Of a stretch of DNA of 24,000 nt, positions 6,716-22,658 are shown piece by piece; within the stretch, counting starts at the first letter, position 1, and each line of letters begins with the position of its first letter. The stretch covers positions 309,705 to 333,704 of the forward strand of contig CAWGKI010000019.1 in the NCBI GenBank assembly GCA_963823095.1. The letters run 5' to 3'. Source of the stretch: Terriglobia bacterium. GTDB taxonomy: Bacteria > Acidobacteriota > Terriglobia > Bryobacterales > Bryobacteraceae. Both the position numbers and the translations under genes were made by a program. A model generated the notes under the pieces. It was given only the letters and a program-made list of their open reading frames with translations, was not told the DNA's origin and made no database searches.

Positions 6716-7892
6716 ATGGCTCCTATCGAGGCGATTCAAGAGGCACTGCGTGCGGAAGGTCTGGACGGCTGGCTGTTCTTCGACCACCACCGGCGGGACC
6801 CGCTGGCATATCGCGTCCTGAAGTTCGAGCCCGGCCAAATGGTGTCGCGGCGCTGGTACTACCTCGTGCCCGCCCAGGGCGAGCCGCGGAAGCTGGTTCA
6901 TAAGATCGAATCGCACGTGCTAGATCCCCTGCCGGGCGCCACGACGCAGTACTCCGGGTGGCGCGACCAGCAGGTTCTTTTGCCTGCTCTCTTGGCCGGG
7001 TCCAAGCGCGTGGCGATGCAGTACTCGCCTAACTGCGCGGTGCCGTATGTCTCGAACATCGACGCCGGCACGGTGGAATTGGTGCGCGGCTGTGGCGTAG
7101 AAGTTGTGACTTCCGCCAACCTGATCCAGGTGTTTGAGGCCGTGTGGAGCGAGGCCCAGTACGCCATGCACAAGCGCGCTGGGACTCTCGTGGACGCGGC
7201 CCGGCGAGCTGCGTTTGCGCGCGTCTCCGACGTACTGCGCTCTGGCCACCACGTCACCGAATACGAGATTCAACAGTTCATTTGCGACACGTTCAAGAGC
7301 AGCGGGTTGACCTATGACCACGGTCCGATCGTGGCAGTCAACGGCAACGCCTCGAATGCCCATTACGATCCGGACCGCACGAACAGCTCCGAGATCAAGC
7401 GAGGCGACCTGCTCCTGATCGACCTGTGGGCCAAGCTCGACCAACCCGGCGCGGTCTACTACGACATCACCTGGACGGGATACTGCGGTACCGATCCCGC
7501 CGACAAGATGCTGAACGTCTTCGCCGCCGTCACGGGCGCGCGCGACGCCGCAGTGGCTCGCGTGAAGAGCGCCGTGAACGAAGGCACGCCGCTCGCCGGA
7601 TATCAAGTGGACGACGCATGCCGCAGGCTTCCTGCGGGAGCGCGGCCTCGACGAGCATTTCTTCCATCGCACCGGCCATTCCATCGGCGAGGAAGTGCAC
7701 GGCAACGGCGCCAATATGGACAACTTCGAGACCCACGACGAGCGCATCGTCATTCCGGGTACCTGCTTTTCCGTGGAGCCTGGAGTGTACCTTCCCGATT
7801 TCGGTATTCGCAGCGAAGTGAATGTCTATCGGGCGCAGTCCTCGGCCGAGGTGACTGGCGAGATCCAGACCGCGCTGCTGCGGCTGCTCTAA
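6716..7892 (+). CDS. M24 family metallopeptidase (Xaa-Pro aminopeptidase-like), reading frame broken once near 7617-7630
   Basis: The N-terminal ~300 codons are in ORF 6716... up to ..AGYQVDDACR. The catalytic C-terminus FLRERGLDEHFFHRTGHSIGEEVHGNGANMD..FSVEPGVYLPDFGIRSEVNVY..LLRLL is in the +1 frame and ends at TAA 7890-7892. Total length is 1177 nt, i.e. 392 codons plus 1 nt. Confidence 0.85.
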
Positions 7893-7916
7893 AAGCCCTG
7901 AACGGGGCCACCGCCC

Positions 7917-8580
7917 GGAAACCGAGCCGCGACCGTGAGGGATCTTTAGCATCGAGCCTTGTCAGATCCCCAGCACGGAGCCGCGAACGAAGAGAGCGGC
8001 CCCCCTCAAACCACCTCTCCTTTTCGGTCATGGCACAGATCTGAAACCGAGCCGCGACCGTGAGGGAGTGGTTGCAGCTTCTTCAGGCCCCCAGCACCGA
8101 GCCGCGAACGAAGAGAGCGGTCCCCTCTCGAACCACCTCTCCTTTTCGGTCATGGCTCACTCCTGAAACGGAGCCACGACCGCGAGGGAGTGGTTGCATC
8201 GAGCTGCTCGTCGCATGTCAGCACCGAACCGCGAACGAAGAGAGCGCCCCCCCCTCAAACCACCTCTCCTCTTCGGTCATGGCACCACCCTGAAACGGAG
8301 CCGCGACCGTGAGGGAGTGGTTGCATCGAGCTGCTCGTCGCATGTCAGCACCGAACCGCGAACGAAGAGAGCGCCCCCCCTCAAACCACCTCTCCTTTTC
8401 GGTCATGGCACCACCCTGAAACGGAGCCGCGACCGTGAGGGAGTGGTTGCAGCTTCTTCAGGTCCCCAGCACCGAGCCGCGAACGAAGAGAGCGGTCCCC
8501 TCTCGAACCACCTCTCCTTTTCGGTCATGGCTCACTCCTGAAACGGAGCCACGACCGCGAGGGAGTGGTTGCATCGAGCT
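7917..8580. repeat. tandem array of a ~122-127 bp hairpin-forming unit, 5 full copies plus one truncated copy
   Basis: Unit boundaries are about 7917, 8041, 8163, 8290, 8416 and 8538. The conserved arms are ctgaaacSgagccRcgaccgYgagggagtggttgca and ccgaRccgcgaacgaagagagcg...tcRaaccacctctccttttcggtcatggc. There are two internal variants (gcttcttcaggYccccagca versus tcgagctgctcgtcgcatgtcagca). Segment 8041-8205 recurs almost identically at 8416-8580, a 375-bp higher-order period. Confidence 0.9.

Positions 8581-9010: not shown

Positions 9011-9014
<4 letters not shown>
8682..9014 (+). CDS. arsenosugar-biosynthesis-associated peroxidase-like protein (AhpD/carboxymuconolactone decarboxylase fold)
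   Basis: MDGYYHQDDLAHFADMGKDAPELWRKF...ALGVAHAVQCPYCIDAYT carries the AhpD-like CxxC motif. GGGAGG lies about 8 nt upstream of ATG 8682. The 3' end overlaps the arsS start by 4 nt. The longer ORF from 8565 runs into the repeat array and is unlikely to be real. Confidence 0.75.
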
Positions 9015-9982
<968 letters not shown>

Positions 9983-10070
9983 TCGCGAGTATCGCCGGAC
10001 TTGTCTCCGGATTAAAACACGCGTCGTGAGTTCGATCGCGAGTTTTAGCATCTGATACGCTCTTTCAAGG

Positions 10071-10409
10071 ATGAAGCTTCCTAACGGCGCTGCGGCGATC
10101 GTCGAAATGTCCAAGCTCCGAGATTACTGCCTCGATCCGTATCATTCCCGCGGCCGGCACAAAGCCCGCATGTTCCAGTCCACACTGGGGATTTCCCAGG
10201 CGGACGCTGGCTGGCTGCGTGCGGCGTTGATTGCGGCGGCCGGCGAAGCGGACGCGGTGGAAGGTGTATCCGATGAATACGGCGACCGGTACACAGTGGA
10301 TTTCGAAATCAGCCGAAGCGATCGCCGTGCAATGCTCCGGAGCGCTCGGATTGTCTTCCGGGGCGAGACGGCACCGCGTTTGACGAGTTGTTTTGTACTA
10401 TTGAATTGA
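10071..10409 (+). CDS. DUF6883 domain protein (putative toxin-like partner of DUF4926)
   Basis: 112 aa. KLRDYCLDPYHSRGRHKARMF...GDRYTVDFEI...IVFRGETAPRLTSCF matches my recollection of the DUF6883 pattern. The next gene follows 9 nt downstream. Confidence 0.65.
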   Translation: MKLPNGAAAIVEMSKLRDYCLDPYHSRGRHKARMFQSTLGISQADAGWLRAALIAAAGEADAVEGVSDEYGDRYTVDFEISRSDRRAMLRSARIVFRGETAPRLTSCFVLLN

Positions 10410-10417
10410 GGTGCGCT

Positions 10418-10636
10418 ATGCGCGAACTCGAGCTGCTTTCCGTAGTTGCGCTGCTGGAAGACGTCTCCGGTAAGGGTCTCCTGCGTGGCCAGGTCGGCAC
10501 CGTGGTCGAGCGGCTTGCTGCCGGTGTATACGAGGTCGAGTTCAGCGACGACGAGGGGCGTTCGTACGCGGAGCTTCCGCTGCGGGCGGAACAGTTGCTC
10601 CAACTGCATCACGAGCCGACTCATCGGGCGGCCTGA
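10418..10636 (+). CDS. DUF4926 domain protein
   Basis: 72 aa from ATG 10418, with GAGGTG 5 nt upstream. MRELELLSVVALLEDVSGKGLLRGQVGTVVERLAAGVYEVEFSDDEGRSYAELPL is the typical DUF4926 pattern. The annotated ORF start at 10388 is probably too early. Confidence 0.65.
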   Translation: MRELELLSVVALLEDVSGKGLLRGQVGTVVERLAAGVYEVEFSDDEGRSYAELPLRAEQLLQLHHEPTHRAA

Positions 10637-10796
10637 ACAGGCGACCGGCGACCGGGGACAGCCTGACCCGTCCCATCTGCAACTCATTGAGCGCAGGGAA
10701 TTTGGTGAATCAGAGCAGGTGAGTATCAGATTCCTCCCGCCCCCATGCTGCTTGCCCGCCGCTTGATCGTATATCCGATAACCCCAGACAGAGTCC

Positions 10797-10991
10797 ATCG
10801 GCTGGGACGGAGCGCTCTACGATTGCGACTTCAACCAGATGCTGGGCCTCGAAACGAACCACGGCGCGCCCGCCCACATCCGCGACTTTTTCGTGGAGAT
10901 GCTCAACCGGCGGCAGATTGTCACCGGTCAGCATTGCTATGCTTGCACCGCCGGCGGCGGGTCGAGTTGCACGGGCGCGAGCGTCAAGTAG
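10797..10991 (+). pseudogene. 5'-truncated copy of the arsS 3' end (last 64 codons plus stop), copy 1
   Basis: Translates without interruption as IGWDGALYDCDFNQMLGLETNHGAPAHIRDFFVEMLNRRQIVTGQHCYACTAGGGSSCTGASVK*. The first 68 nt differ from arsS 9788-9855 at 1 position. The remaining 127 nt differ at about 17 positions, mostly synonymous. Confidence 0.9.
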
Positions 10992-11002
10992 TCAGCCGGC
11001 CG

Positions 11003-11542
11003 TTACTGGATCTTGGCCAGTTCCTGCTCGATCACACGCTTCATCTGCTCGAATTCCGCCGCTTCGTACCCGGAGGATTGGAATGCAATCCTGCCGTCGG
11101 CCCCGACCACGTAACTGCGCGGAATGCCGGCATTCGCAAACCGTTTGTAGATGGCGCGGTGCGGATCTGCGGCCAGCGGATAAGTAACGCGAAGCTTCGG
11201 CAACTCCTTGAGGATCACACCCTGCGTCTGTTCTCGCGCAATACCGACCATGGCGAACTTGCGGGACTTGAATCGGAGCCAGACTTCCTTCTCCAACTGC
11301 GGCATCTCCCCGCGGCACGGCCCACACCACGTCGCCCAGAAGTTCACCAGCAGGACTTTCCCCTTGAGGTTCTGTACATCGAACTTCTCACCCTTGATGC
11401 TGGACACCGTGAACGCAGGCATAGCTTGGCCAACCTTGGTGTACGTCTCCCACTTCACATCGGCAGGTGCAGCGTCCTGACCGCTGGCGAAGAACTGAGC
11501 CGTCAGTACCGCAATTGGCAACCAGCGGATCGATCTCATCAT
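11003..11542 (-). CDS. TlpA/ResA-family thiol-disulfide oxidoreductase (redoxin), secreted or periplasmic
   Basis: Start MMRSIRWLPIAVLTAQFFASGQ (signal peptide) at ATG 11542. Thioredoxin motif LVNFWATWCGPCRGEMP. The longer ORF reaching 11737 has no support. Confidence 0.85.
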   Translation of the reverse strand: MMRSIRWLPIAVLTAQFFASGQDAAPADVKWETYTKVGQAMPAFTVSSIKGEKFDVQNLKGKVLLVNFWATWCGPCRGEMPQLEKEVWLRFKSRKFAMVGIAREQTQGVILKELPKLRVTYPLAADPHRAIYKRFANAGIPRSYVVGADGRIAFQSSGYEAAEFEQMKRVIEQELAKIQ

Positions 11543-11724
11543 GTCGTCTTGCCCTTCGTCTGAATCGTACCGCACGAGCGGAGAAGAGGAGTTGCGCGTG
11601 CCCACTTTGGAGGGGTGTGCGACATAGAAGTGGACGCTAGCGTAATTCGCTGGCAAGGTGGCCGCAAGCCGGGCGTATGAGCAGGCCAGGCGGAAGGCGC
11701 GGTTGGGGCAGCTTGGTAAGCTGC

Positions 11725-12018
11725 GGCCGATTGGCAATCGGCCCTGGAGATTCTACATTTAAGCACGGCTGCATCAGGCCAAGATAGAAGAGGCGTGAGC
11801 GCGTTGTATCAGGGCATGGCTTCAGCCGTGCCGTAAGAACGCGCTCAGTCCAGGGCTTTAGCCGCCGCTGCTTTCCGGCTGCGCCGTTCACAGGGGCTAA
11901 AGCCCAATTCCTTTCCGCAACGGTTCGGCACGGCTAAAGCCATGCCCTGATACAAAGCCGGCCATGCCCAAATGCACCACCAGATGTAGAAACTGCAGGG
12001 CCGATTGTCAATCGGCCC
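11725..12018. repeat. triple-nested palindromic element (~294 bp), MITE/REP-like
   Basis: Outer inverted repeat: ccgattggcaatcggccctggagattctacat (11727-11758) versus atgtagaaactgcagggccgattgtcaatcgg (11985-12016). Middle: ttgtatcagggcatggcttcagccgtgccg (11804-11833) versus cggcacggctaaagccatgccctgatacaa (11926-11955), 29/30 complementary. Inner: gggctttagcc versus ggctaaagccc. Confidence 0.85.
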
Positions 12019-12046
12019 ACTTGCACTTTGGCGCGAGACGGCGGCG

Positions 12047-12074
12047 TTGACACGTTCCGCCGGTTTGTTATGCT
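12047..12074 (+). promoter_or_regulatory. candidate sigma70-type promoter of the AbrB/RelE module
   Basis: TTGACA (12047-12052), a 16-nt spacer, then TATGCT (12069-12074), 51 nt upstream of ATG 12126. Confidence 0.4.
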
Positions 12075-12084
12075 ACCGGCAGGG

Positions 12085-12099
12085 GTCAGGATTCCTGAC
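12085..12099 (+). promoter_or_regulatory. candidate operator palindrome
   Basis: gtcagg-att-cctgac is a perfect 6-bp inverted repeat just downstream of the putative -10 element. TA antitoxins typically autoregulate at sites in this position. Confidence 0.3.
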
Positions 12100-12125
12100 T
12101 TCCGGATTTAGTGAACATTCGGCAT

Positions 12126-12475
12126 TATGAACTCGACTACCAGAATTCAGCACAAGGGCCAGGTGACCATTCCCACTCGCGTCCGCGAACTCGCCGGGTT
12201 GTCGAAGGGCGACCTGGTGGAGTTTTCTTTTCAACGCGGCAAGATCGTCATCACGCCGAAGCTGATTGATTGACCGTTCGAAGTTTCCGAACGCCGGCAA
12301 CGAGTACACGCCGGAGCAGCGCCGCGTGATCGACGGCCGCCTGGCTTTGGCCGACGCCGACATCAAGGCGGGCCGCGTATCCAAAACCTTCTCGAACGCC
12401 GGCGATTTCATCGCCGATTTGCAGAAAGCAGTCAAGAAGAACCGCAAGGCCGCAAGTAAACGCGCCGCCAAATGA
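12126..12475 (+). pseudogene. AbrB/MazE/SpoVT-type antitoxin with C-terminal extension, disrupted by two small insertions
   Basis: MNSTTRIQHKGQVTIPTRVRELAGLSKGDLVEFSFQRGK is in frame 0. The canonical continuation IVITPKLI is in frame +1, after the aaa at 12240-12242. The rest, LIDRSKFPNAGNEYTPEQRRVIDGRLALADADIKAGR...KRAAK*, is in frame +2, after an apparent gatt/gatt 4-nt duplication at about 12264-12271. Confidence 0.65.
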
Positions 12476-12717
12476 ACATTCGCCGAACCACTCACTTCGA
12501 TCGCGCCTACGGCAAAGCGCCTGAGGATATCCAGGCCGCATTTAACAAACAACTGGTACTCCTGCTTCAGAACCTCCGCCATCCCTCGCTCCACGCCAAG
12601 AAATACGACGAAGGTCAAGACCGCTGGTAGGCTCGTGTCACTCGCGACTGGCGATTCTATTTTCGAATCGAAGATGACACGTACATCCTGCTCGACATCA
12701 TCCCTCGCCCCAAGTAG
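12472..12717 (+). pseudogene. RelE/ParE-family toxin with an in-frame TAG
   Basis: The ATG overlaps the antitoxin stop (aATGa). MNIRRTTHFDRAYGKAPEDIQAAFNKQLVLLLQNLRHPSLHAKKYDEGQDRW-TAG(12628-12630)-ARVTRDWRFYFRIEDDTYILLDIIPRPK*. The family pattern continues in frame across the stop codon. Confidence 0.75.
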
Positions 12718-12814
12718 TAGTCATTCAATCCTGCATCGACTCGCTCAGCCCACCAAGTATCTTTCGAACGAGGTGGCTGGCAATAACTGACGCTCCCCCT
12801 CCGTCCTGTTCGCG

Positions 12815-13129
12815 ATCGGCCGCTTCCGCGATTTCCGGGATGCCAGCGGAAAATGCGAAGCGTACATGCAGCGGCTGGTGCAGGCGTACAACCCCGTGGC
12901 GGCGGCGGGGGTGATGTGCCGCTATACGCGGCCCATCGGCTGGGATGGAACGCTTTTCGACTGCGACTTCAACCAGATGCTGGGCCTATCGACCAACCAC
13001 GGCGCACCCACGCACATCCGCGACTTTTCCGTGGAAATGCTCAACCGGCGGCAGATCGTCACCGGCCAGCACTGCTACGCGTGTACGGCGGGCGGTGGCT
13101 CGAGTTGCACGGGCGCGAGCGTCAAGTGA
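12815..13129 (+). pseudogene. 5'-truncated copy of the arsS 3' end (last 104 codons plus stop), copy 2
   Basis: IGRFRDFRDASGKCEAYMQRLVQAYNPVAAAGVMCRYTRPIGWDGTLFDCDFNQMLGLSTNHGAPTHIRDFSVEMLNRRQIVTGQHCYACTAGGGSSCTGASVK*. It is colinear with arsS 9668-9982 with no indels and roughly 14-20% nt divergence. Weak similarity may extend to about 12808. Confidence 0.9.
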
Positions 13130-13333
13130 TCTGTCCCCGGAATTACCCTTTTGCCGGATTTGCTGTGCCTGAATGCGAAAGGCTTGATTATACCGAAGAT
13201 GGAGCATAACATGCATAGCGAGTAAACAGGCTCTCCACATAATTGCGAACTATACAGAAGACGCAAACTTGTGCGAGCCTTTTGCGTGGTTTTGGAAAAC
13301 GTTCGTGAAACTGGATCATCATGTGGAGGATGA

Positions 13334-13750
13334 ATGAAGTTACTTACTTGGTTCGGAACTAACGTAACATTACGATATGCTTTGCTGATGGTGTTGGCCG
13401 CCTCGGTCGGTCCGGGGGTCGTAGCCGCATATTCGCAATGCAGCGGGTGTGACTGCATGAAATCGTGCGGCGATGGAGCAACGAGCAGCTCGGGAACGCG
13501 CTGTAGTACGTGCAACGTGAATGGCTCTGGATCGACGCCGTGTTATTGGCGGAATTGCACCAACACGAAGACGTGTTGGACATGGAGCGCGGATTTGTCC
13601 ATTTGCATTCCGACATCACACTGCGGCCCCGTAAACCCTCCTCAGGGATCCTGTACTGACCACTACTCGGATGCGTGCATCCAAAGTGGCAGCAATTGCG
13701 CCTGTGACCATATGAGCTGCGACGATCCTTTGTGCGGGTCGAAAACGTGA
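13334..13750 (+). CDS. secreted cysteine-rich small protein (17 Cys in about 105 mature residues), function unknown
   Basis: GGAGG lies 5 nt upstream of ATG 13334. The signal-like N-terminus ends ..ALLMVLAASVGPGVVAA/YSQ. The mature part is rich in C/S/T/G/N (CSGCDCMKSC..CSTCNVNGSGSTPC..CTNTKTC..CACDHMSCDDPLC). The local GC content is lower than in the flanking DNA. Confidence 0.6.
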   Translation: MKLLTWFGTNVTLRYALLMVLAASVGPGVVAAYSQCSGCDCMKSCGDGATSSSGTRCSTCNVNGSGSTPCYWRNCTNTKTCWTWSADLSICIPTSHCGPVNPPQGSCTDHYSDACIQSGSNCACDHMSCDDPLCGSKT

Positions 13751-13773
13751 GACAAGCAACAAAGAGGTGGATC

Positions 13774-14598
13774 ATGAAGTACAGAATTCTGCTACTTGTA
13801 GGCATCGTCGCTTTATCGACGTTCGCGTCGTTCGGCGTTCGGTCCTGGTTTCGAGGGCAAGCGGTAAGGGCCAATGAAAAGCGTGTGGCCGACACTGTTG
13901 CAGCTCTTCCGCCAATTGTGCCAGCCACCGTAACATTTAAAGAGATCCTCAGCGCCCCGGGTAAATCCGATATCCTCTCCACAGAACGCCAGTATGCTGT
14001 TCGTGTGGATGGATCTGAGGTGTGGACCGACCGGCAACATACCAATGCAGGCGACATATACCTCACTCACTGGCACATGCGTTTAAGTGATGGGACGGAC
14101 GCAGAGGGCGACGATGTGACAAAAACGATGACGGCGGTGAGGGTGCCGTCATCCAGATCGGATAGGGTGCTAGAGAGATGGGATCCTAATTCGGGATGTA
14201 CCACCCAGGCGAGCGGTTTCAACAAGACTCCTGCGCCAGTGGCTGAGGAGACACTCTTGGGCATCAACACGATGAAGATTGCATTGAGCGATTCGAAAAC
14301 TGCGCGTATCACTGTGTGGCGAGCACCCGGCTTGAACTGTCTCGAACTGCGCCGTTTAGCGGAGTTTATGAACTCGGACGGTTCCGTGAAGGATGCCAGC
14401 GATCTAGTCGCCACCGAAGTACTGCTTGGTGAGCCAAACGGTTCGCTGTTCCTTCTTCCGACAGGGGAAGAAAACGTTAGCTATTCAGAACGTTACAGGC
14501 GCCTTGCTGCCGCCCAAGGTGGTCAACCCAACGAGAGTGATCTACAATCTCTTCAACGTAGCGACAAGGTATTCTCGAGATATGCGCTCAACCCCTAA
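13774..14598 (+). CDS. hypothetical N-terminally anchored or secreted protein, 274 aa
   Basis: AGAGGTGG lies 4 nt upstream of ATG 13774. N-terminus MKYRILLLVGIVALSTFASFGV. No family recognised. Same strand and same lower-GC block as the Cys-rich gene, starting 24 nt after its stop. Confidence 0.55.
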   Translation: MKYRILLLVGIVALSTFASFGVRSWFRGQAVRANEKRVADTVAALPPIVPATVTFKEILSAPGKSDILSTERQYAVRVDGSEVWTDRQHTNAGDIYLTHWHMRLSDGTDAEGDDVTKTMTAVRVPSSRSDRVLERWDPNSGCTTQASGFNKTPAPVAEETLLGINTMKIALSDSKTARITVWRAPGLNCLELRRLAEFMNSDGSVKDASDLVATEVLLGEPNGSLFLLPTGEENVSYSERYRRLAAAQGGQPNESDLQSLQRSDKVFSRYALNP

Positions 14599-15055
14599 GA
14601 AACGTGGCTGAGCCGCGCGCAATAGAGACCGCGACAGGCCGAAGGAGGGGACTGTGCAAGTTCTCCCCTCTCTCGGCCGAAAGCACGGGGCTCACCACGT
14701 TGTGCGGACCATTGGCTCCGTTCTAATCCGGGGACGCAAACACCGTTCGGCCACCTGGCGCAATCAAGCACCAAAGAACTCCAGACGACCACAGCCCGAC
14801 GACAGGTTTCCAACGCGGCGAGTCATGCACTTGGCGCCACGCGGCGCGCTTGCGCCTGGGTCTATACCCTTGGCGGCGAAGAGAAATCGGCTGATTCGCG
14901 AAGCAAAACCGCAAGGCCTTACTGAAATTCCACTGTATCTTACAGATTCTAAAGAGGCGTTTCGGTAAGCCTTACGGTTTTGCAGTCGCGCTCGACGCAG
15001 TTTTCCTGTCCCGAAGCATGCGAAACACATAGCCGGAGCGGATGCCATGCCGCTC

Positions 15056-15435
15056 ATGGAGGATACACTAATCCGGGTAAATCCGAGAATCCGCGGATAG
15101 GATAGGCGATTCGCTCAAATGCCTTCGTGATTTCCCCGAAGATGCCCGGCACGATGCGGGTTATCAACTGGACACAAGTACAGACAAAGTACGAGCGGGG
15201 AACAGCCGGATGATTTCAAGTCCTATGCCGGCCATCGGCAAGGGTGTCGAGGAGATTCGCGTTTCGGATGACAGCGGCGCTTATCGTGTGATCTACGTCG
15301 CCAAACGCGCGGATGCCGTGTACGTGCTGCACGCTTTCCAGAAGAAGACGCAGGCAACTCCGAAGCCGCATCTACGAAAGGACTATCGATGCGGCGAAAA
15401 GACGATTTGCGCAACTGCTGAGAGGTGCGAAATGA
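15056..15435 (+). pseudogene. HigB/Gp49-like (RelE/ParE superfamily) toxin, multiply frame-disrupted
   Basis: Family-like strings are split across frames. IGDSLKCLRDFPEDARHDAGYQLD and PMPAIGKGVEEIRVSDDSGAYRVIYVAKRADAVYVLHAFQKKTQATPKP are in frame 0. QVQTKYERG is in frame 1 and GEQPDDFK in frame 2 (15172-15220). The C-terminus IYERTIDAAKRRFAQLLRGAK* is in frame 1, ending at TGA 15433-15435. The only upstream ATG (15056) runs into TAG 15098. Confidence 0.6.
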
Positions 15436-15713
15436 GCAAACCCGAGAGCTATTTGAGTGTTTGGGATGCGATCGCGGACACGCCCGAGCAGGCTGCGAAC
15501 CTGAGGGCGCGCGCCGAACTGATGCAGAAGATCACGGCCATCGTAAAGCAGCAGGATTGGACCCAGGCCGAGGCCGCGAGCCGCTGCGGGGTGACGCAGC
15601 CACGGATCAACGATTTGCTGCGCGGCCGGGTCTCGCGCTTCTCGCTTGACGCGTTGGTAAACATCGCCACGGCGCTGGGGTGCCGCGTGCGGGTAGATCT
15701 TGAAGCTGCCTGA
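15432..15713 (+). CDS. XRE-family HTH antitoxin (HigA-like)
   Basis: 93 aa, with the ATG overlapping the toxin stop (aATGa). MSKPESYLSVWDAIADTPEQAANLRARAELMQKI...WTQAEAASRCGVTQPRINDLLRGRVSRFSLDALVNIATALG is the typical partner of Gp49-like toxins. Confidence 0.8.
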   Translation: MSKPESYLSVWDAIADTPEQAANLRARAELMQKITAIVKQQDWTQAEAASRCGVTQPRINDLLRGRVSRFSLDALVNIATALGCRVRVDLEAA

Positions 15714-15902
15714 GCGGCCGCCGGGCCGGGATCGCGAGACGCACCAGCTTTGGCGGAGAGTAAAGGGCAGGACTCCCTCCTCGCGCTGGGTGACTTTCTT
15801 CTTGACCCAACGACTCAGCCTTCGGTGACAGTTTACGATCCTGGGGCAGTATGCTCAAATCCCAAGCCCGACGTGATCGGTCTCACGCGCCGATTCAGAG
15901 GC

Positions 15903-16013
15903 CTACCGCTCGATATGCCGCTTGACGGCATCTGTGAACTGCCGGGTTGTCGCAGAGCCGCCGAGATCGCACGTCAGCACGTCGCCCTGCCTGAACGCCA
16001 CCATGACGGCCTT
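15903..16013 (-). pseudogene. 5'-truncated copy of the icd 3' end (last ~36 codons plus stop)
   Basis: The minus-strand translation ..KAVMVAFRQGDVLTCDLGGSATTRQFTDAVKRHIER* matches the icd C-terminus ..KAIMAAFRQGDVLTRDLGGRATTRQFTDAVKRHIES* (19868-19978). Nucleotide identity is about 70% with no indels. Confidence 0.8.
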
Positions 16014-16068
16014 GGGCGTGACATCCAAGCACCGTGCGCTACAAGTGTCGTGAGCTACCAGCATTTGG

Positions 16069-16422
16069 ATGGATAATGGGCCTGTGATGACCAAGCAGGA
16101 GACTATTGCCGAGATCACTCGCCGGCTCGTCGAATTCTACCGGCCGGCATGTATCTACCTTTTCGGCTCGGAGGCGAGAGGCGAGTCCGGGCCCGACAGC
16201 GATCTGGATTTCTGTGTTGTCCTGCCCGACGATGCGCCGGCGAGCTTATACCGCGACCGGAGTATCCACCGGCGCTTTTGGGGCTTGGGTGTGGCTGTGG
16301 ATATCGTTCGTTTGCCCCGCAACGACTTTGAAGCGCGCGCCGCGCATGTTGTCGCTTCACTGCCGGCAACCATTCTGCGCGAAGGGAGGCTGCTCTATGA
16401 CGCCGGACGAATTGCTGCGTAA
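16069..16422 (+). CDS. nucleotidyltransferase-domain protein (MNT-type antitoxin)
   Basis: LFGSEARGESGPDSDLDFCVVL is the GSxxRGx(n)DxD minimal-NTase motif. 117 aa. An alternative start exists at ATG 16087. Confidence 0.8.
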   Translation: MDNGPVMTKQETIAEITRRLVEFYRPACIYLFGSEARGESGPDSDLDFCVVLPDDAPASLYRDRSIHRRFWGLGVAVDIVRLPRNDFEARAAHVVASLPATILREGRLLYDAGRIAA

Positions 16423-16801
16423 AGAGGCGGCAAAGTGGCTCCGCGAGGCGGAAAAAGACCGCAACGCCGCGCGAGTCCTGGCGGACGTCGAGCCGTCGCG
16501 CTCAGTCTTTCACAGCCAGCAGGCTGCGGAAAAGGCCATCAAAGCGTTTCTCACGTTTCGCCAGATTGCCTTCCGGAAGACGCATGACCTCTCCGACCTG
16601 GGAGCGCAATGTGCGGCGTTGGACCCGACTCTCGAATCAACGCTGCGGGATGCCGAGGAACTGACCGACTATGCGTCGGCTTTCCGGTATCCGGATTCGC
16701 CATATGAACCCGATGCCGCGGAAGCGGCCCAGGCGTTGACGCTGGCTGCCCGGCTCGGCGAGGAAATACAGCAACGAATCGCCGCAAACGGGACCTTTTG
16801 A
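16397..16801 (+). CDS. HEPN-domain protein (toxin partner of MNT)
   Basis: 134 aa from ATG 16397, with GAAGGGAGG upstream. WLREAEKDRNAARVLAD...FHSQQAAEKAIKAFL...KTHDLSDL carries the HEPN Rx4-6H-type region. It overlaps the NTase gene by 26 nt, the classic MNT-HEPN arrangement. Confidence 0.8.
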   Translation: MTPDELLRKEAAKWLREAEKDRNAARVLADVEPSRSVFHSQQAAEKAIKAFLTFRQIAFRKTHDLSDLGAQCAALDPTLESTLRDAEELTDYASAFRYPDSPYEPDAAEAAQALTLAARLGEEIQQRIAANGTF

Positions 16802-16935
16802 TGTATCTGGAGGCAGCATGCTTAATCCCCAAGCCCCACGCTGATCAGGTTGCCCAGAGCATGTAGCGCAAAATGCACAGAGGGGCAAAAGGGCAAAGGT
16901 CTTAATTCCCGGGAACGTATGTGTTGCCCTAAAAC

Positions 16936-17289
16936 TTGGTAGAGCTACTCGAATACGTGAATGCCGCTGGGATTTCTCCCTCTGCGATGTGGCGCGAGAA
17001 ACTCGATGCGACAACCCGGGCGCGGGTCACGGTCGCAGTTCTCAGGCTGGAGACCGGCAAGTTCTCAACTGTCTAAGGCGCTGGGTCCTGCATTCTCGAA
17101 ATGCGCCTGGATTTCGGCCCCGGCTATCGTGTGTATTTCGGCAAAGACGGAGAGCAGTTGACGATCCTGCTTGGCGGCGGCACGAAGAAGCGGCAAGAGT
17201 CCGATATCAAAGCGGCGCAAACGCTCTGGCATGAATCCAAGCGGACGAAAGGGGGGCGGGGGAACGATGGCAAACACGCGGAGATTTAG
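16936..17289 (+). pseudogene. addiction-module killer protein (RelE/ParE superfamily, HI1419-like) with an in-frame TAA
   Basis: (TTG 16936) VELLEYVNAAGISPSAMWREKLDATTRARVTVAVLRLETGKFSTV-TAA(17074-17076)[55 protein letters not shown]... The stop is in frame. The family normally has Lys or a similar residue at this position. Confidence 0.7.
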
Positions 17290-17599
17290 CGAGACGGTTA
17301 AGGCGGACCTCGAAAGGAATGTGGAGTTTCGCCGTGCACTCCTGAGCGAAGCTGTAGCTTGCATGGTCTCGGGAGATTTGGAGACGGGGAAAGTCGTTCT
17401 GCGCGAGTACGTCAACGGGACGGTTGGATTCCTCAAACTCGGGTCGGATCTTGGCCGGTCCCCGAAGAGCCTGATGCGGATGCTCAGTCCGGCAGGGAAC
17501 CCGCAAGCGCGGAATCTATTTGAGATGGTCGCCTATCTGCAGAAGATTGAAGGCACCGTGCTCGAAGTCCGCCCAAGCAACAACAAAGTCGCGGCGTGA
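17267..17599 (+). CDS. addiction-module antidote protein (HI1420-like HTH)
   Basis: 110 aa from ATG 17267: [49 protein letters not shown]...[31 protein letters not shown]. It overlaps the killer gene's 3' end by 23 nt. Confidence 0.8.
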
Positions 17600-17772
17600 C
17601 CCGCCGGGTTCTCGTTTGAACCGAGCAAGATCTCAAGGGCAGCGACGTCTGACCCGCGCTCAAGTGTCTGAACTGCCCCAAGTAGCAGCCGTCGGGCTTT
17701 CCAGGCTTGGTTCGATTCGTCGGACCGGGTTTGGCCCCCGAGGATGAGACCCCGGCCGATTGCCTACGCTGG

Positions 17773-18135
17773 TTAAATCGGCAGTAACCGAATTCTGTTC
17801 CGGTTCAGGTCTACGGTGACCAATGCGCCGGTTTCCAGGTGGGAGCGGCTGGCGTGCAACGCGCGAACGACAATCTCGCCGATCGCCGATGGAAGAACGT
17901 CCTGGGTACGGACTTGGATCACGCTCGGCCGGCGCAACTTCCGAGTTGCGAGGAGCGCGCCAAAATCCAGATCGTGAGTGAAGATCACCAGCCCGTTTGC
18001 ACTGGCGTAGTCCAGTATTTCGGTGTCTGGCGCGGATGGCTGACCGATCTCAGACCAGTGCGTACTGTCGAAACCGGCATCGGCCAGGAACTGGACCCAA
18101 AGCGGGCTCAAATTCATGTCGATCAGGAGTTTCAT
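17773..18135 (-). CDS. DUF5615 family PIN-like protein
   Basis: 120 aa: MKLLIDMNLSPLWVQFLADAGFDSTHWSEIG...DTEILDYASANGLVIFTHDLDFGALL. There is a 4-nt overlap with the upstream DUF433 gene. Confidence 0.75.
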   Translation of the reverse strand: MKLLIDMNLSPLWVQFLADAGFDSTHWSEIGQPSAPDTEILDYASANGLVIFTHDLDFGALLATRKLRRPSVIQVRTQDVLPSAIGEIVVRALHASRSHLETGALVTVDLNRNRIRLLPI

Positions 18136-18359
18136 GCCGCAGGTAGGGGGACTTCAAACTCCTCGACTCGCCAGGCGGCGTAGGCAAGCGCCTGTCGAAT
18201 GTCCTCTTCTTCAAGGTAAGGGTATGCGGCGAGAATCTCAGAGTTGGATCGCCCCGAGGCGACGAGCCCGACAATCGTCCCCACCGTGACACGCATTCCG
18301 CGCACGCAGGGCTTGCCGCCCATCACTTCCGGGTTTCGCGTGATTCGATCAAGCACCAT
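18132..18359 (-). CDS. DUF433 domain protein (putative antitoxin of the PIN-like protein)
   Basis: 75 aa: ITRNPEVMGGKPCVRGMRVTVGTIVGLVASGRSNSEILAAYPYLEEEDIRQALAYA is the typical DUF433 pattern. Confidence 0.8.
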   Translation of the reverse strand: MVLDRITRNPEVMGGKPCVRGMRVTVGTIVGLVASGRSNSEILAAYPYLEEEDIRQALAYAAWRVEEFEVPLPAA

Positions 18360-18509
18360 GGCAAGTACAGCTAATTCTACCTCGTGGCGATTGATACCGG
18401 GTGCCTCACCCGCCCTTAAGCAATTACATCCCCACGCGGCGCCCGGTCAACAAGGACGTGGGTTCTCATCGTGAACGACAACACCCCCTCGATCCGCGGG
18501 CAACCAGCA

Positions 18510-19188
18510 TTATCGAAGCAGCCTCAATCCCACTACGAACAGCACACAAACGGCCCAGCCAGAAATCAGCGCAACTAGCCCCCAGGCACGCTTCCTCGGC
18601 AGCCGCCACCACATGTAGTAGCTACCGAAAATCATGACCAGCAGACCAGCCGCGACTGCATCCATCGACAGCGCCCAAATGCTGGTCAGAATCCAGTCCC
18701 GCTGGTTCCGGGAATCGCCGGCCCGGACGCCGGTGAACGTGTGCAGGATGCGCATCACGCCCCAAGCGTTTACGTCGATGCGCTGCACCTTGACTCGCTC
18801 TTGAACCAGGTCCGTTTTGATTTCAAACATGTGGCCCGGACGGCTCGCCCGGAAATTGAGTTGGCCAGAATCGTCCTGCGCCGACGTCCACTCGATCTCG
18901 CCCGCGATACCGAGCTGCGCCAGGATGTTCTGCGCGCGAGCGAGGTCGGAGCCCGCAGGCGGACGGCTGATTTTGCTGTTCGAAGGTCGTTTGCTTTCGT
19001 GCCGGCCAGAAGTCGGCAAAGGTCCACTTCGGGTGATTCAGCAGAAGGCCCGTGAAGGCGAACAGCCAGATGAAGAAGAGCAGGAAGAGGCCGATGTAGA
19101 AATGCAGCCTGCGATTCCATGTTTCAAAGCCCTCCGCGGCTCGCGCAGGCAGAGGCTTCTCCGGGAGGTTGTTAACCGGCGATTGCAT
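18510..19188 (-). CDS. PepSY-associated TM-helix membrane protein, reading frame broken once near 18965-18980
   Basis: The N-terminal part MQSPVNNLPEK...WNRRLHFYIGLFLLFFIWLFAFTGLLLNHPKWTFADFWPARKQTTFEQQ is in ORF 18823..19239. The continuation ISRPPAGSDLARAQNILAQLGIAGEIEW...MWWRLPRKRAWGLVALISGW is in ORF 18510..19019. The frames join at the t-run 18971-18974. Total length is 679 nt, i.e. 226 codons plus 1 nt. Confidence 0.7.
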
Positions 19189-19804
19189 AGAGCACCCCGA
19201 AGAAGCTGAACGCGCCGGCCGCCAGGAGGACAATTCCAATCCGCCTTTCCGATCGCAACACGAACCACAGGTAGATCCCGCTCATCGTTATGAAGAACAA
19301 GAGGTAGCAGGTGCCATCGGCCAGCCACTTCCAAACAATCGCGGGATACCAGTTCATGCGGATGTCGGCCAGGTGCGGGCCGGGGGACTTGTGGAGCAGG
19401 ATGAAGGCGTCCACGAGCCCCGTCTTGCGTTCCGTGACCGTTGCGGTGCGCGTGGACAGGTCGAGATCGAGGATGGTCTCCCGCCCCGGTACGCTCACAG
19501 GGATGCTGAGTTCGCGTTTCTTTGGGGAGTATGAGATGAACCCGATCTCCCCGCGGATATGGGCCTGATCGAGCAGAGTACGCACCGCATCCACTCTGGC
19601 TCGTCCGGAAAGGCTCTCGATGCCCGCGGGGATTTGGAGATTCTCAACCTGTCTGGAGAGACGAGCCACCGAGCCTGGGGGAGCGGCGCCCGGCGGGTGA
19701 ACCAGCGCAAACACGCTGATGGCGAACACGACCACGAACGGGCTGATAAACAGACCCGCGTACAGATGCAGGTCGCGCGTGACGAGATAGAAGCGTTTAC
19801 TCAT
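19172..19804 (-). CDS. PepSY-associated TM-helix membrane protein (paralog of the downstream gene)
   Basis: 210 aa: MSKRFYLVTRDLHLYAGLFISPFVVVFAISVFALVHP...TLLDQAHIRGEIGFIS...WYPAIVWKWLADGTCYLLFFITMSGIYLW. Same architecture as 18510..19188. Confidence 0.7.
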   Translation of the reverse strand: MSKRFYLVTRDLHLYAGLFISPFVVVFAISVFALVHPPGAAPPGSVARLSRQVENLQIPAGIESLSGRARVDAVRTLLDQAHIRGEIGFISYSPKKRELSIPVSVPGRETILDLDLSTRTATVTERKTGLVDAFILLHKSPGPHLADIRMNWYPAIVWKWLADGTCYLLFFITMSGIYLWFVLRSERRIGIVLLAAGAFSFFGVLYAIAG

Positions 19805-19867
19805 ACTGCACTTGAGGACCTCGCAGGAATCGGCGCCATACGATTTTCAACGCGCGGGCGACTGGAT

Positions 19868-20878
19868 CTAAGATTCGATGTGCCGCTTCACCGCGTCGGT
19901 GAACTGGCGCGTGGTCGCCCTGCCTCCCAGATCCCGCGTCAGCACGTCGCCTTGACGGAAGGCGGCCATGATCGCCTTCTGCAGCCGGTTGGCGGCCTCG
20001 CCCTCGCCCAGATGGCGCAGCATCAGGATGGAAGAAGACATCAGCGCCGTAGGATTTGCGACACCCTTTCCCGCAATGTCGGGCGCCGATCCGTGCACGG
20101 CTTCGAACACCGCGCACTTCTCGCCCATATTCGCTCCGGGGACTACGCCTAAACCGCCGACGAGCCCGGCGGCCAGATCCGACACGATGTCGCCATACAG
20201 GTTCGGCAGCAGCAGGACGTCGAACGTTTCGGGCCGCATCACGAGTTGCATCGACGCGTTGTCCACGATCAGTTCGTTGTACGCGATGTCGGGGTAATTG
20301 GCGGCAACTTCCCGGCAGCAGCGGATGAACAGGCCATCCGACAGCTTCATGATGTTGGCCTTGTGGACGGCCGTGATCTTCTTGCGGTTGTTTTTCTTTG
20401 AGTAGGCGAAGGCATAGTTCGCGATGCGCATGGAGGCGTAGCGCGTGATGATCTTCAGGCTCTCGACGACGTCCTTGATGATCTCGTGCTCCAGGCCGGA
20501 GTACAGGTCTTCCGTGTTTTCGCGGAAGATGACCATGTCGATATTGACGTCCTGAAAGCGTGTTTTCAGGCCCGGCAACGTGAACACCGGACGCACGTTG
20601 GCAAACAGATCGAGCTGCTTCCGGATGGCCACGTTCACGCTCTTGAAGCCGCCCGCGATGGGCGTGGTGACCGGTCCTTTTAGCGCCACGCCAGTGCGTT
20701 CGACCGATTCGAGAACATGCGGTGGCAGCGATACGCCGGCCTGCTCGATGATGGCTGCGCTCAACTCCACGCGCTCCCATTCGATCGGCACGCCGAGCGC
20801 GCTGAGGACTTCAACGGTCGCATCGGCCACCTCGGGCCCAATGCCGTCGCCGGGGATGAGGGTGATCTTGTATGCCAC
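19868..20878 (-). CDS. icd: isocitrate dehydrogenase, NAD-dependent type (isocitrate/isopropylmalate dehydrogenase family)
   Basis: 336 aa from GTG 20878: (M)AYKITLIPGDGIGPEV...KSVNVAIRKQLDLFANVRP...FRENTEDLYSG...LPNLYGDIVSDLAAGLVGGLG...EAVHGSAPDIAGKG. The 417-aa extended ORF would leave no promoter space before the divergent purH. Confidence 0.85.
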   Translation of the reverse strand: MAYKITLIPGDGIGPEVADATVEVLSALGVPIEWERVELSAAIIEQAGVSLPPHVLESVERTGVALKGPVTTPIAGGFKSVNVAIRKQLDLFANVRPVFTLPGLKTRFQDVNIDMVIFRENTEDLYSGLEHEIIKDVVESLKIITRYASMRIANYAFAYSKKNNRKKITAVHKANIMKLSDGLFIRCCREVAANYPDIAYNELIVDNASMQLVMRPETFDVLLLPNLYGDIVSDLAAGLVGGLGVVPGANMGEKCAVFEAVHGSAPDIAGKGVANPTALMSSSILMLRHLGEGEAANRLQKAIMAAFRQGDVLTRDLGGRATTRQFTDAVKRHIES

Positions 20879-22517: not shown

Positions 22518-22554
22518 AGATCTGTCAGAAAACAACCATTTCAGCGGACCTAAG

Positions 22555-22658
22555 TGGGGCGGACTTTAGTCCGCGTGGGACTTCAGTCCCGCTTCTGAAG
22601 TTTCCCCAAATGCACACAATCGGGACTGAAGTCCCGCGCGGGTTGAAACCCGCCCCAC
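22555..22658. repeat. REP-like compound hairpin element (family C); probable bidirectional terminator
   Basis: gtggggcggactttagtccgcgtgggacttcagtcccgc (left) versus gcgggactgaagtcccgcgcgggttgaaacccgccccac (right). Each arm contains its own short hairpins (gcggac-ttta-gtccgc, gggac-ttca-gtccc, gcgggt-tgaa-acccgc). Located between the convergent purH and ATP-grasp gene. Confidence 0.7.

Follow-up and report, generated by a model that had tools for sequence, protein, structure and literature searches.

The 24,000-nucleotide stretch analysed here (the window; positions 309,705 to 333,704 of contig CAWGKI010000019.1, from a Terriglobia bacterium of the Bryobacteraceae) carries, besides an intact gene for NAD-dependent isocitrate dehydrogenase (icd), a second copy of the 3' end of this gene, which lies about 4 kb downstream of icd in the same orientation and is designated icd' in the following. 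This copy is a relic, namely the truncated 3' end of a second icd allele of a sister lineage, and it is read here, with middling confidence, as a recombination scar left by the homology-anchored, integrase-independent uptake of sister-lineage DNA. The facing gene, arsS, which encodes an arsenosugar-biosynthesis radical SAM protein, has left relic ends of its own, and it may be that the relics of the two genes mark the opposite ends of a single imported block and do not go back to two independent, mirror-image insertions.

The resident icd gene (19868-20878, minus strand) matches the Pfam family Iso_dh (E=3e-102) and NCBIfam TIGR00175 (score 443.9 versus a cutoff of 432.4). Its reading frame is open to 21121, with a probable GTG start at 20878, and the predicted protein is 98% identical at the amino acid level to that of L161 and 95-96% identical to those of L162 and L167, these numbers denoting loci fetched for comparison. 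The last 36 codons of icd and its TAG stop codon (19868-19978, minus strand) form the resident copy of the repeat, and icd' (15903-16013, minus strand) is the other. As an earlier note on this DNA had maintained, the two copies align without gaps, although their identity, estimated there at about 70%, was measured as 84 of 111 nucleotides (75.7%), with 32 of 37 positions identical at the protein level, including the stop. The pair was listed independently by a repeat search, and the E values obtained in a self-BLAST (1e-19 to 3e-17) place the similarity far beyond chance. At its 5' edge icd' begins abruptly at 16013, with two of the 23 preceding codons matching in register, and at the other side the homology stops exactly at the stop codon. 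Since the similarity ends sharply at both edges, icd' is not part of a longer degraded icd paralogue, the possibility that the earlier note had itself raised against its proposal.

The 27 mismatches between icd' and the resident end fall at the first, second and third codon positions in the ratio 5/3/19 (P=9e-5), and most of the divergence therefore arose while each copy sat in a working gene. On this codon-level evidence icd' is a separate working, and foreign, allele and not a local duplication. Its identity with the icd ends of the window, L161, L162, L167 and L172 is 0.76-0.82, those ends being 0.79-0.93 identical to one another, and the closest allele is that of L167/L168 (0.82 over 111 nt; 84.6% over 104 nt by BLAST). 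The resident end, in turn, is orthologous to the 3' ends of the relatives, with an identity of 0.89 to L161 and 0.81-0.87 to the others. Decay of icd' has begun, but is recent, because the relic carries four private amino acid changes, one of them an R to C replacement in the otherwise invariant TRDLGG motif. The longest exact run shared by the two copies is 15 nt (GGCGACGTGCTGACG) and falls within conserved codons (GDVLT), for which coding constraint is an equally possible explanation; a near-identical block of the kind described below for arsS is not present in the icd pair. The flanks of icd' (15723-15902 and 16014-16068) have no match in any fetched locus, and 1.9 Mb of icd loci contain no gene-end duplicates besides those of the window. 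A second icd match in L053 was considered as such a duplicate and rejected, being a full tandem Iso_dh paralogue.

Between icd and its second copy lie, as the earlier note had described, two PepSY genes, the second of them frameshifted, and three toxin-antitoxin-like modules. PepSY1 (19172-19804, minus strand), the conserved neighbour of icd, encodes a PepSY-TM-like membrane protein with weak Pfam PepSY_TM matches; its paralogue PepSY2 (18510-19239, minus strand) is split across two overlapping frames by a 1-nt insertion near 18975-18985 relative to L161, L162 and L165. In the relatives the gene is intact (225-236 aa), and the frameshift reflects either a pseudogene or an assembly error. The idea that the PepSY genes are cargo did not survive a comparison with relatives, which were found by a protein search with PepSY1 (1560 homologues) followed by comparison of gene context. 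Exact look-ups of PepSY1 and of the DUF5615 PIN-like protein of the window returned no record, although P0249 is identical to its PepSY1; P0248, encoded on a 13-kb contig, is at least 90% identical to PepSY1. Five related contig groups keep the order icd-PepSY1-PepSY2, which is seen in L161, L162, L163, L167-L171 and L172-L174. L161 is collinear with the window from 20443 down to 18486, with 92.5% nucleotide identity over 1958 nt; L162/L163, L167/L168 and L172/L173 are 78-82% identical and all show the arrangement (purH-)icd-PepSY1-PepSY2, L162 and L167 being collinear with the window from purH through PepSY2. Because both order and identity hold in the relatives, the PepSY pair is a matter of conserved synteny and not islet cargo. 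Between the window and L161, identity stays at 0.88-0.98 per 60-nt bin on either side of 19978, the point 111 nt from the end of icd, and collapses only at about 18490, right past the PepSY2 stop codon; since it is uniform across 19978, there is no junction in the resident icd at the border of the repeat. A second icd end is found in none of L161, L165, L167 (in which 7 kb past PepSY2 are covered) and L172, all of which bear the PepSY genes. Relatives thus have these genes without the fragment, the outcome that the earlier note had named as evidence against its own insertion model. Past PepSY2, the relatives compared there diverge from the window. As a side observation, icd is called as two ORFs (284 and 57 aa) in one related population (L168 1480-1492; L171), about 13 nt being absent near residue 270; L167, otherwise near-identical to L168, has an intact icd, and the lesion is either an assembly error or real.

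Two further layouts define the frame in which these genes sit. In L001, whose icd product is 90% identical at the amino acid level, icd and arsS are convergent, with stop codons only 9 bp apart; in L165, a few genes separate the PepSY pair from a convergent arsS-CMD block. The conserved frame is therefore CMD-arsS facing (PepSY-PepSY-)icd-purH, with a variable middle. Scans of public genomes and metagenomes with icd returned no relative above 90% amino acid identity, and arsS was found beside icd in L001 only; by these scans the window belongs with Bryobacteraceae / Paludibaculum-like Acidobacteriota.

The mirror image on the arsS side, also proposed in the earlier note, turned out to be more pronounced than claimed, the 3' end of arsS being present three times. 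The intact gene (9011-9982, plus strand; TIGR04167 score 429.6 versus a cutoff of 300; Pfam DUF3641 and Radical_SAM) is convergent with icd and supplies the first copy (9668-9982). The relic arsS'2 (10793-10991, plus strand) comprises about 65 last codons and the stop, and is 91% identical to the intact end; only one mismatch falls in its first 68 nt and 17 in the other 127 (Fisher P=0.004), with a distribution over codon positions of 2/1/15. A near-identical block of 68 nt followed by 13% divergence is the signature of a crossover inside the arsS repeat and, lying at the 5' end of the repeat, would lend indirect support to a homology-facilitated joint. The relic arsS'3 (12815-13129, plus strand) retains the last 104 codons and the stop, is 83% identical to the intact end at the nucleotide level, and has mismatches distributed 9/6/38; the two arsS relics thus differ in length (199 and 315 nt). 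The identity of arsS'3 to other arsS alleles is 0.82-0.83, those alleles being 0.89 identical to one another, so that arsS'3 and icd' are comparable outliers, each with private amino acid changes.

The left junction of arsS'3, with its upstream flank, is shared with L172 (2825-3206 versus window 13130-12749, 81% identical), in which the arsS' relic lies 960 bp from PepSY2, and neither icd' nor the two-gene module that follows arsS'3 in the window is present. This junction is either old or has been passed on as a block, and its occurrence in L172 without the two-gene module and icd' suggests that those parts came later, beside an existing arsS' anchor. An ATG-initiated open frame of 87 codons is kept in arsS'3 both in the window (12866-13129) and in L172 (2826-3089). 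The L172 copy is 0.89 identical to functional arsS genes versus 0.82 to arsS'3 of the window, a pattern that hints at gene conversion between the arsS' relic and the resident arsS. The heptamer CGATCGG was also considered as a recombination motif: three of its four occurrences in the window are at 9666 and 9786, which are the relic start points in arsS and the only two such heptamers in its 3' half, and at 12813, at the arsS'3 junction. The motif was rejected, arsS'2, arsS'3 and L172 reading CCATCGG at -195, so that the parental allele was probably without it; its presence at the relic boundaries is best taken as a coincidence, at most as a microhomology.

Mobility genes were sought by Pfam searches of every sizeable ORF at 9983-19867 and of the flanking genes, within the 24-kb window of the 469-kb contig. 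No integrase, transposase or tRNA was found anywhere in the window, nor any excisionase or phage gene, either between the icd repeats or elsewhere in the 24 kb, and searches of phage, plasmid and viral sequences returned no viral contig or phage with arsS or icd ends. Only 9983-18490 is variable, being pieced together from small modules that are for the most part toxin-antitoxin pairs and in several cases decayed; it is bounded by two conserved convergent blocks, CMD-arsS and purH-icd-PepSY1-PepSY2. From the arsS end, arsS is followed by a DUF6883/DUF4926 pair, arsS'2, a redoxin gene on the minus strand, a 290-bp inverted repeat, a decayed AbrB/RelE pair and arsS'3; then come the two-gene module, HigB*/HigA (HigB*A), icd', an MNT/HEPN pair, a RelE/ParE pair, an element of about 120 nt, a PIN(DUF5615)/DUF433 pair and, finally, PepSY2, PepSY1 and icd. 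The two modules that stand between arsS'3 and icd' both recur elsewhere. The two-gene module (13223-14698, plus strand; GC low, 0.51-0.56) encodes a Cys-rich protein of 138 aa (13334-13750) and one of 288 aa (13732-14598), neither of which has any match in Pfam or NCBIfam, and is collinear, with 77% nucleotide identity, with L178, in a different context lacking arsS and icd; the idea that homologues of the 288-aa protein mark a 'fossil locus' was accordingly not confirmed. HigB*A (15105-15722, plus strand), assigned by Pfam as an N-terminally truncated Gp49 toxin and an HTH_37 antitoxin, has a counterpart of 618 bp, 89% identical at the nucleotide level, in the unrelated locus L179-L188, which shows a truncated HigB (44 aa) as well. 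HigA has more than 7900 homologues, and their contexts show a widespread module in an unrelated locus, uninformative on icd. Since both modules recur in unrelated loci, they are mobile on their own.

In the reading put forward at the outset, the second icd allele would have been a working gene during its evolution in a lineage that is sister to this Bryobacteraceae-like acidobacterium, and DNA of that lineage would have entered by homology-facilitated illegitimate recombination, in which the incoming DNA pairs at one end with a conserved gene end and is joined illegitimately at the other, with no dedicated integrase, the outcome being 'sequential displacement'. A narrower version, which we hold more tentatively and at somewhat less than even confidence, takes 12815-16013 to be a single imported slice of a foreign convergent arsS/icd locus. 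The donor locus would have been of the L001 type, with arsS and icd directly facing and accessory modules between them; the slice, comprising in order arsS'3, the two-gene module, HigB*A and icd', would have been anchored on a pre-existing arsS' relic of the resident genome, and the far end of the slice, which lies 111 nt into the foreign icd, would have been joined at 16013/16014, beside MNT/HEPN. arsS'3 and icd' do face each other in the same orientation as arsS and icd of L001, and the lack of a near-identical block in the icd pair suggests that the edge of icd' is simply the end of the incoming piece of DNA. Such a slice would be the simplest way to cover the observations as a whole, and would account for the orientation and position of icd' and for the likeness of arsS'3 and icd' as outliers, as well as for the junction shared with L172, the relatives without icd' and the unbroken resident icd.

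Several points weigh against this reading. Because none of the fetched loci represents a donor-type genome in which both the icd allele and its flanks match, we can only infer the direction and extent of the imported block, as we do the anchor and the illegitimate joint. The contiguity of 12815-16013 as one import may be deceptive and is not proven, given that both the two-gene module and HigB*A are found in other places lacking arsS and icd and may have entered separately. The joint at 16013/16014 is putative. Furthermore, the 15-nt exact run in the icd repeats could be an integrase core, and an integrase may act in trans from beyond the 24-kb window.

Another view is that the region is a decayed or trans-mobilised integrative islet resembling e14 or phage 21, which would have brought a replacement icd 3' end and integrated into icd, its tyrosine recombinase being lost or located elsewhere, so that the islet would now resemble a cis-mobilisable element. 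Co-oriented direct repeats of a gene 3' end, here 75.7% identical and with icd left intact, are the classic attL/attR footprint, with the icd/icdC precedent of e14 (PMC13626634); the 15-nt run could serve as core and the toxin-antitoxin-rich cargo is typical of islands. However, the 24 kb contain no integrase, excisionase or phage gene, the PepSY pair, which is vertically conserved, is part of the DNA between the repeats, no breakpoint marks the border of the repeat in the resident icd, the two arsS relics differ in length and no viral contig or phage carries these ends. An e14-like insertion in the strict sense is rejected, because the integrase, the absence of the cargo from relatives and the junction at -111 that it predicts all fail, and we regard the islet view as unlikely overall. 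Two copies on the same strand of the same contig and in phase would fit an icd end that was duplicated locally, as a segment, and then drifted, or what remains of a longer paralogue. The third-position bias, the absence of indels and the conserved stop, though, point to divergence mostly under purifying selection, no icd similarity is left upstream past 16013, and icd' differs from the resident allele to about the same extent as it does from those of other lineages; the codon-position pattern and the sharp boundary effectively refute this origin.

What is left of the model of the earlier note, in which an intact gene is followed by cargo and by a displaced older end, is a sequential displacement on the icd side. 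Its core stands in that the duplication is co-oriented, stems from a different allele and is linked to the arsS duplications, and it fails in that the PepSY genes are not mobile cargo, icd is unbroken at 19978 and no integrase was found; it survives, modified, with a long tract from a relative in which the PepSY genes are native and with a homologous crossover located upstream of the icd stop by more than 575 nt. The genome would first have had an icd of the fragment type directly beside the HigB*A and two-gene modules, and a long L161-like tract (at least part of icd, its 3' end, PepSY1/2 and toxin-antitoxin genes) would have recombined in, crossing over homologously at the upstream end and joining illegitimately at position -111 of the old gene at the far end, thereby pushing the old 3' end inward. 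The order of intact gene, new DNA and co-oriented old end is what this course of events would leave, both arsS relics are explained likewise, icd' is intact enough for recent function, and arsS/icd neighbours without PepSY genes exist (L001). On the other hand, the flat identity to L161 across icd demands a crossover at a distance of over 575 nt upstream of the icd stop; L172 has the arsS'3 junction, with the PepSY pair 960 bp away, and no icd', so that a secondary deletion is needed; and purH, icd and the PepSY genes show no distinct backbone signal, their segments having mosaic relationships in a breakpoint test. The segment-wise comparisons did not separate displacement from the single-slice model, and displacement is considered possible, if doubtful. 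It has also been asked whether the relic ends are useful and maintained as such, as RecA homology arms for the toxin-antitoxin islets or as templates for arsS/icd gene conversion. The 87-codon frame of arsS'3 is open in the window and in L172 despite the old junction, and the closeness of the L172 copy to functional arsS genes suggests ongoing gene conversion; both relics, however, carry private replacements at otherwise invariant residues, a sign of relaxed constraint, icd' occurs in one lineage only, and there is no direct evidence of circles or of mobility, so that maintenance for use is very improbable. The particular form in which RecA would excise the islets as circles between the repeats, with a single crossover re-inserting them in relatives, is hardly more credible, if a shade less remote; it would provide for integrase-free islet movement in which arsS and icd are not inactivated, with gene conversion keeping the arms coding-like.

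Horizontal-transfer hotspots that lack integrases lie between conserved core genes, and the present locus resembles them in its conserved flanks, in content that differs from relative to relative and in its enrichment in small modules of the toxin-antitoxin or defence type. Such hotspots are not known to carry, as a rule, relic copies of the gene ends on both flanks. For relics of this kind, known systems offer parallels. The element e14 and phage 21 integrate into the icd gene of Escherichia coli and leave icdC behind (Hill, Gray & Brody 1989, as summarised in PMC13626634). The similarities are the isocitrate dehydrogenase target, the alternative 3' end given to the gene, the co-oriented C-terminal fragment beyond the intervening DNA, and the differences between the two ends, which are mainly at synonymous sites. 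Yet e14, a prophage of 15 kb, encodes its own integrase and is excised on SOS induction, whereas the locus described here has no integrase or phage gene, its PepSY pair is part of conserved chromosomal synteny and no junction is seen in its resident icd at the border of the repeat; the enzyme, moreover, is a 336-aa NAD-dependent isocitrate dehydrogenase (NAD-IDH; TIGR00175) and not the 416-aa NADP-dependent one.

Orphan 3' ends are also found in type VI secretion system (T6SS) and Rhs arrays, for which sequential displacement via homology-facilitated illegitimate recombination was put forward (Kirchberger et al. 2017, PMC5361080). With such arrays, and those of contact-dependent inhibition (CDI), the locus shares anchoring in a conserved part of a gene, old 3' ends pushed downstream with their companions, the lack of an integrase, and co-oriented relic ends from different lineages, here two for arsS and one for icd, with sharp internal boundaries; the relic ends are not the nearest neighbours of the resident ends, and all pairs are third-position-biased. 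Those systems, in contrast, are polymorphic toxins whose C-terminal ends are under diversifying selection and accompanied by immunity genes, while NAD-IDH and ArsS have conserved C-terminal ends and toxin-antitoxin companions. Homology-facilitated illegitimate recombination itself is known from Acinetobacter, Streptococcus pneumoniae and Pseudomonas stutzeri (cited in PMC5361080 and PMC3240628). Its combination of one homologous anchor and one illegitimate joint can place foreign DNA next to a conserved gene, which explains a truncated foreign end with a sharp boundary; in those species it was demonstrated experimentally with selected markers, whereas here it is deduced from a natural genome alone. 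The locus is thus a further instance of such scars, placed at housekeeping gene ends in an integrase-less, toxin-antitoxin-rich hotspot. The icd' finding is a real but fairly ordinary footprint of gene exchange, which brings in no new kind of element and touches no long-standing open question. If the favoured explanation is true, it would be a clear natural case of a process known mostly from laboratory transformation and toxin loci, and datable relic gene ends could be used as markers of the sequence in which DNA was acquired at integrase-less hotspots in uncultured Acidobacteria.

The other modules of the hotspot were called with Pfam and NCBIfam on the sizeable ORFs, on frames read by eye and on reconstructed pseudogenes. 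Next to arsS, DUF6883 (10071-10409) and DUF4926 (10388-10636) together resemble a toxin-antitoxin pair (10071-10636, plus strand; Pfam E=3e-23 and 3e-21). A thioredoxin-like redoxin (AhpC/TSA, TlpA-like) is encoded at 11003-11737 on the minus strand (Pfam E=5e-19), and the segment 12100-12790 (plus strand) holds a frameshifted AbrB/MazE-type antitoxin, whose joined frames match Pfam MazE_antitoxin (E=1.3e-8), and a RelE-like toxin interrupted by an in-frame stop, assigned by reading the translation and without a Pfam or NCBIfam match. The gap between the redoxin and AbrB/RelE genes is occupied by nested inverted repeats (11725-12017) with arms of 34 nt (91% complementary) and 33 nt (94%), forming a hairpin-capable element of about 290 bp of which no copy is present in any fetched locus. 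Beyond icd', the toxin-antitoxin pair at 16069-16801 (plus strand) consists of an MNT nucleotidyltransferase (16069-16422; Pfam NTP_transf_2 E=1.6e-11) and a HEPN protein (about 16397-16801; E=2.7e-21). It is followed at 16990-17599 (plus strand) by a RelE/ParE-family toxin pseudogene with an in-frame stop near 17047, of which an ORF is left at 17101-17289, and its antitoxin (about 17267-17599); the pseudogene matches NCBIfam TIGR02683 only at profile positions 50-94, and a homologous pair is found in L011. The DUF433 antitoxin (18132-18359) and DUF5615 PIN-like toxin (17773-18135) form the last pair (17773-18359, minus strand; Pfam E=1.5e-25 and 2.9e-28), which is absent at the corresponding position in L161, L165, L167 and L172. 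In all, three of the toxins among the toxin-antitoxin modules of the hotspot are truncated or interrupted.

Dispersed noncoding sequences are interspersed with these modules. An element of about 120 nt (17637-17755) has copies with 79-82% identity 3' of PepSY2 in L165 (4381-4500) and L167 (4689-4793) and in the unrelated toxin-antitoxin locus L179-L188 (L179 9268-9380), always at the border of variable DNA; it has no Rfam match and does not reach significance in its folding z-score. The PepSY pair of L165 stands between direct repeats, 86% identical, of a longer version (about 300-440 nt), and the 306-nt repeats there were considered as att sites and rejected, as they overlap the dispersed repeat of unrelated loci. 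A 57-nt sequence right after the HEPN stop (16805-16861) has an 84% copy at L179 5476-5532 and recurs in L179-L188, where it is found 167 bp upstream of HigB*A; in the window it lies downstream of HigB*A, i.e. the order is permuted. Taken together, the 57-nt and 120-nt elements recur across L165, L167 and L179-L188.

The flanks of the window are made up of housekeeping genes, namely nadC, valS, a histidine kinase gene, an M24 peptidase gene, CMD, purH and an ATP-grasp gene. valS (1548-4255, minus strand) appears to be split into two overlapping ORFs, one (2135-4255) covering tRNA-synt_1 and the start of the anticodon domain and the other (1548-2156) the remaining anticodon domain and the C-terminal arm, which indicates a frameshift or sequencing error near 2135-2156. 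At 7914-8580, a unit of 122-127 nt is repeated in tandem about five times (84-87% matches); this array overlaps the 3' end of the M24 peptidase ORF (6716-8044) and reaches the CMD gene upstream of arsS, and the C-terminal region of the peptidase gives weak repeated tblastn matches along the array. Finally, purH and the ATP-grasp gene have between them a REP-like palindrome (22554-22658) whose arms, of 44 nt, are 82% complementary; a 41-nt piece of this element is found as an 88% copy 3' of PepSY2 in L167 (4375-4415) and in L169.

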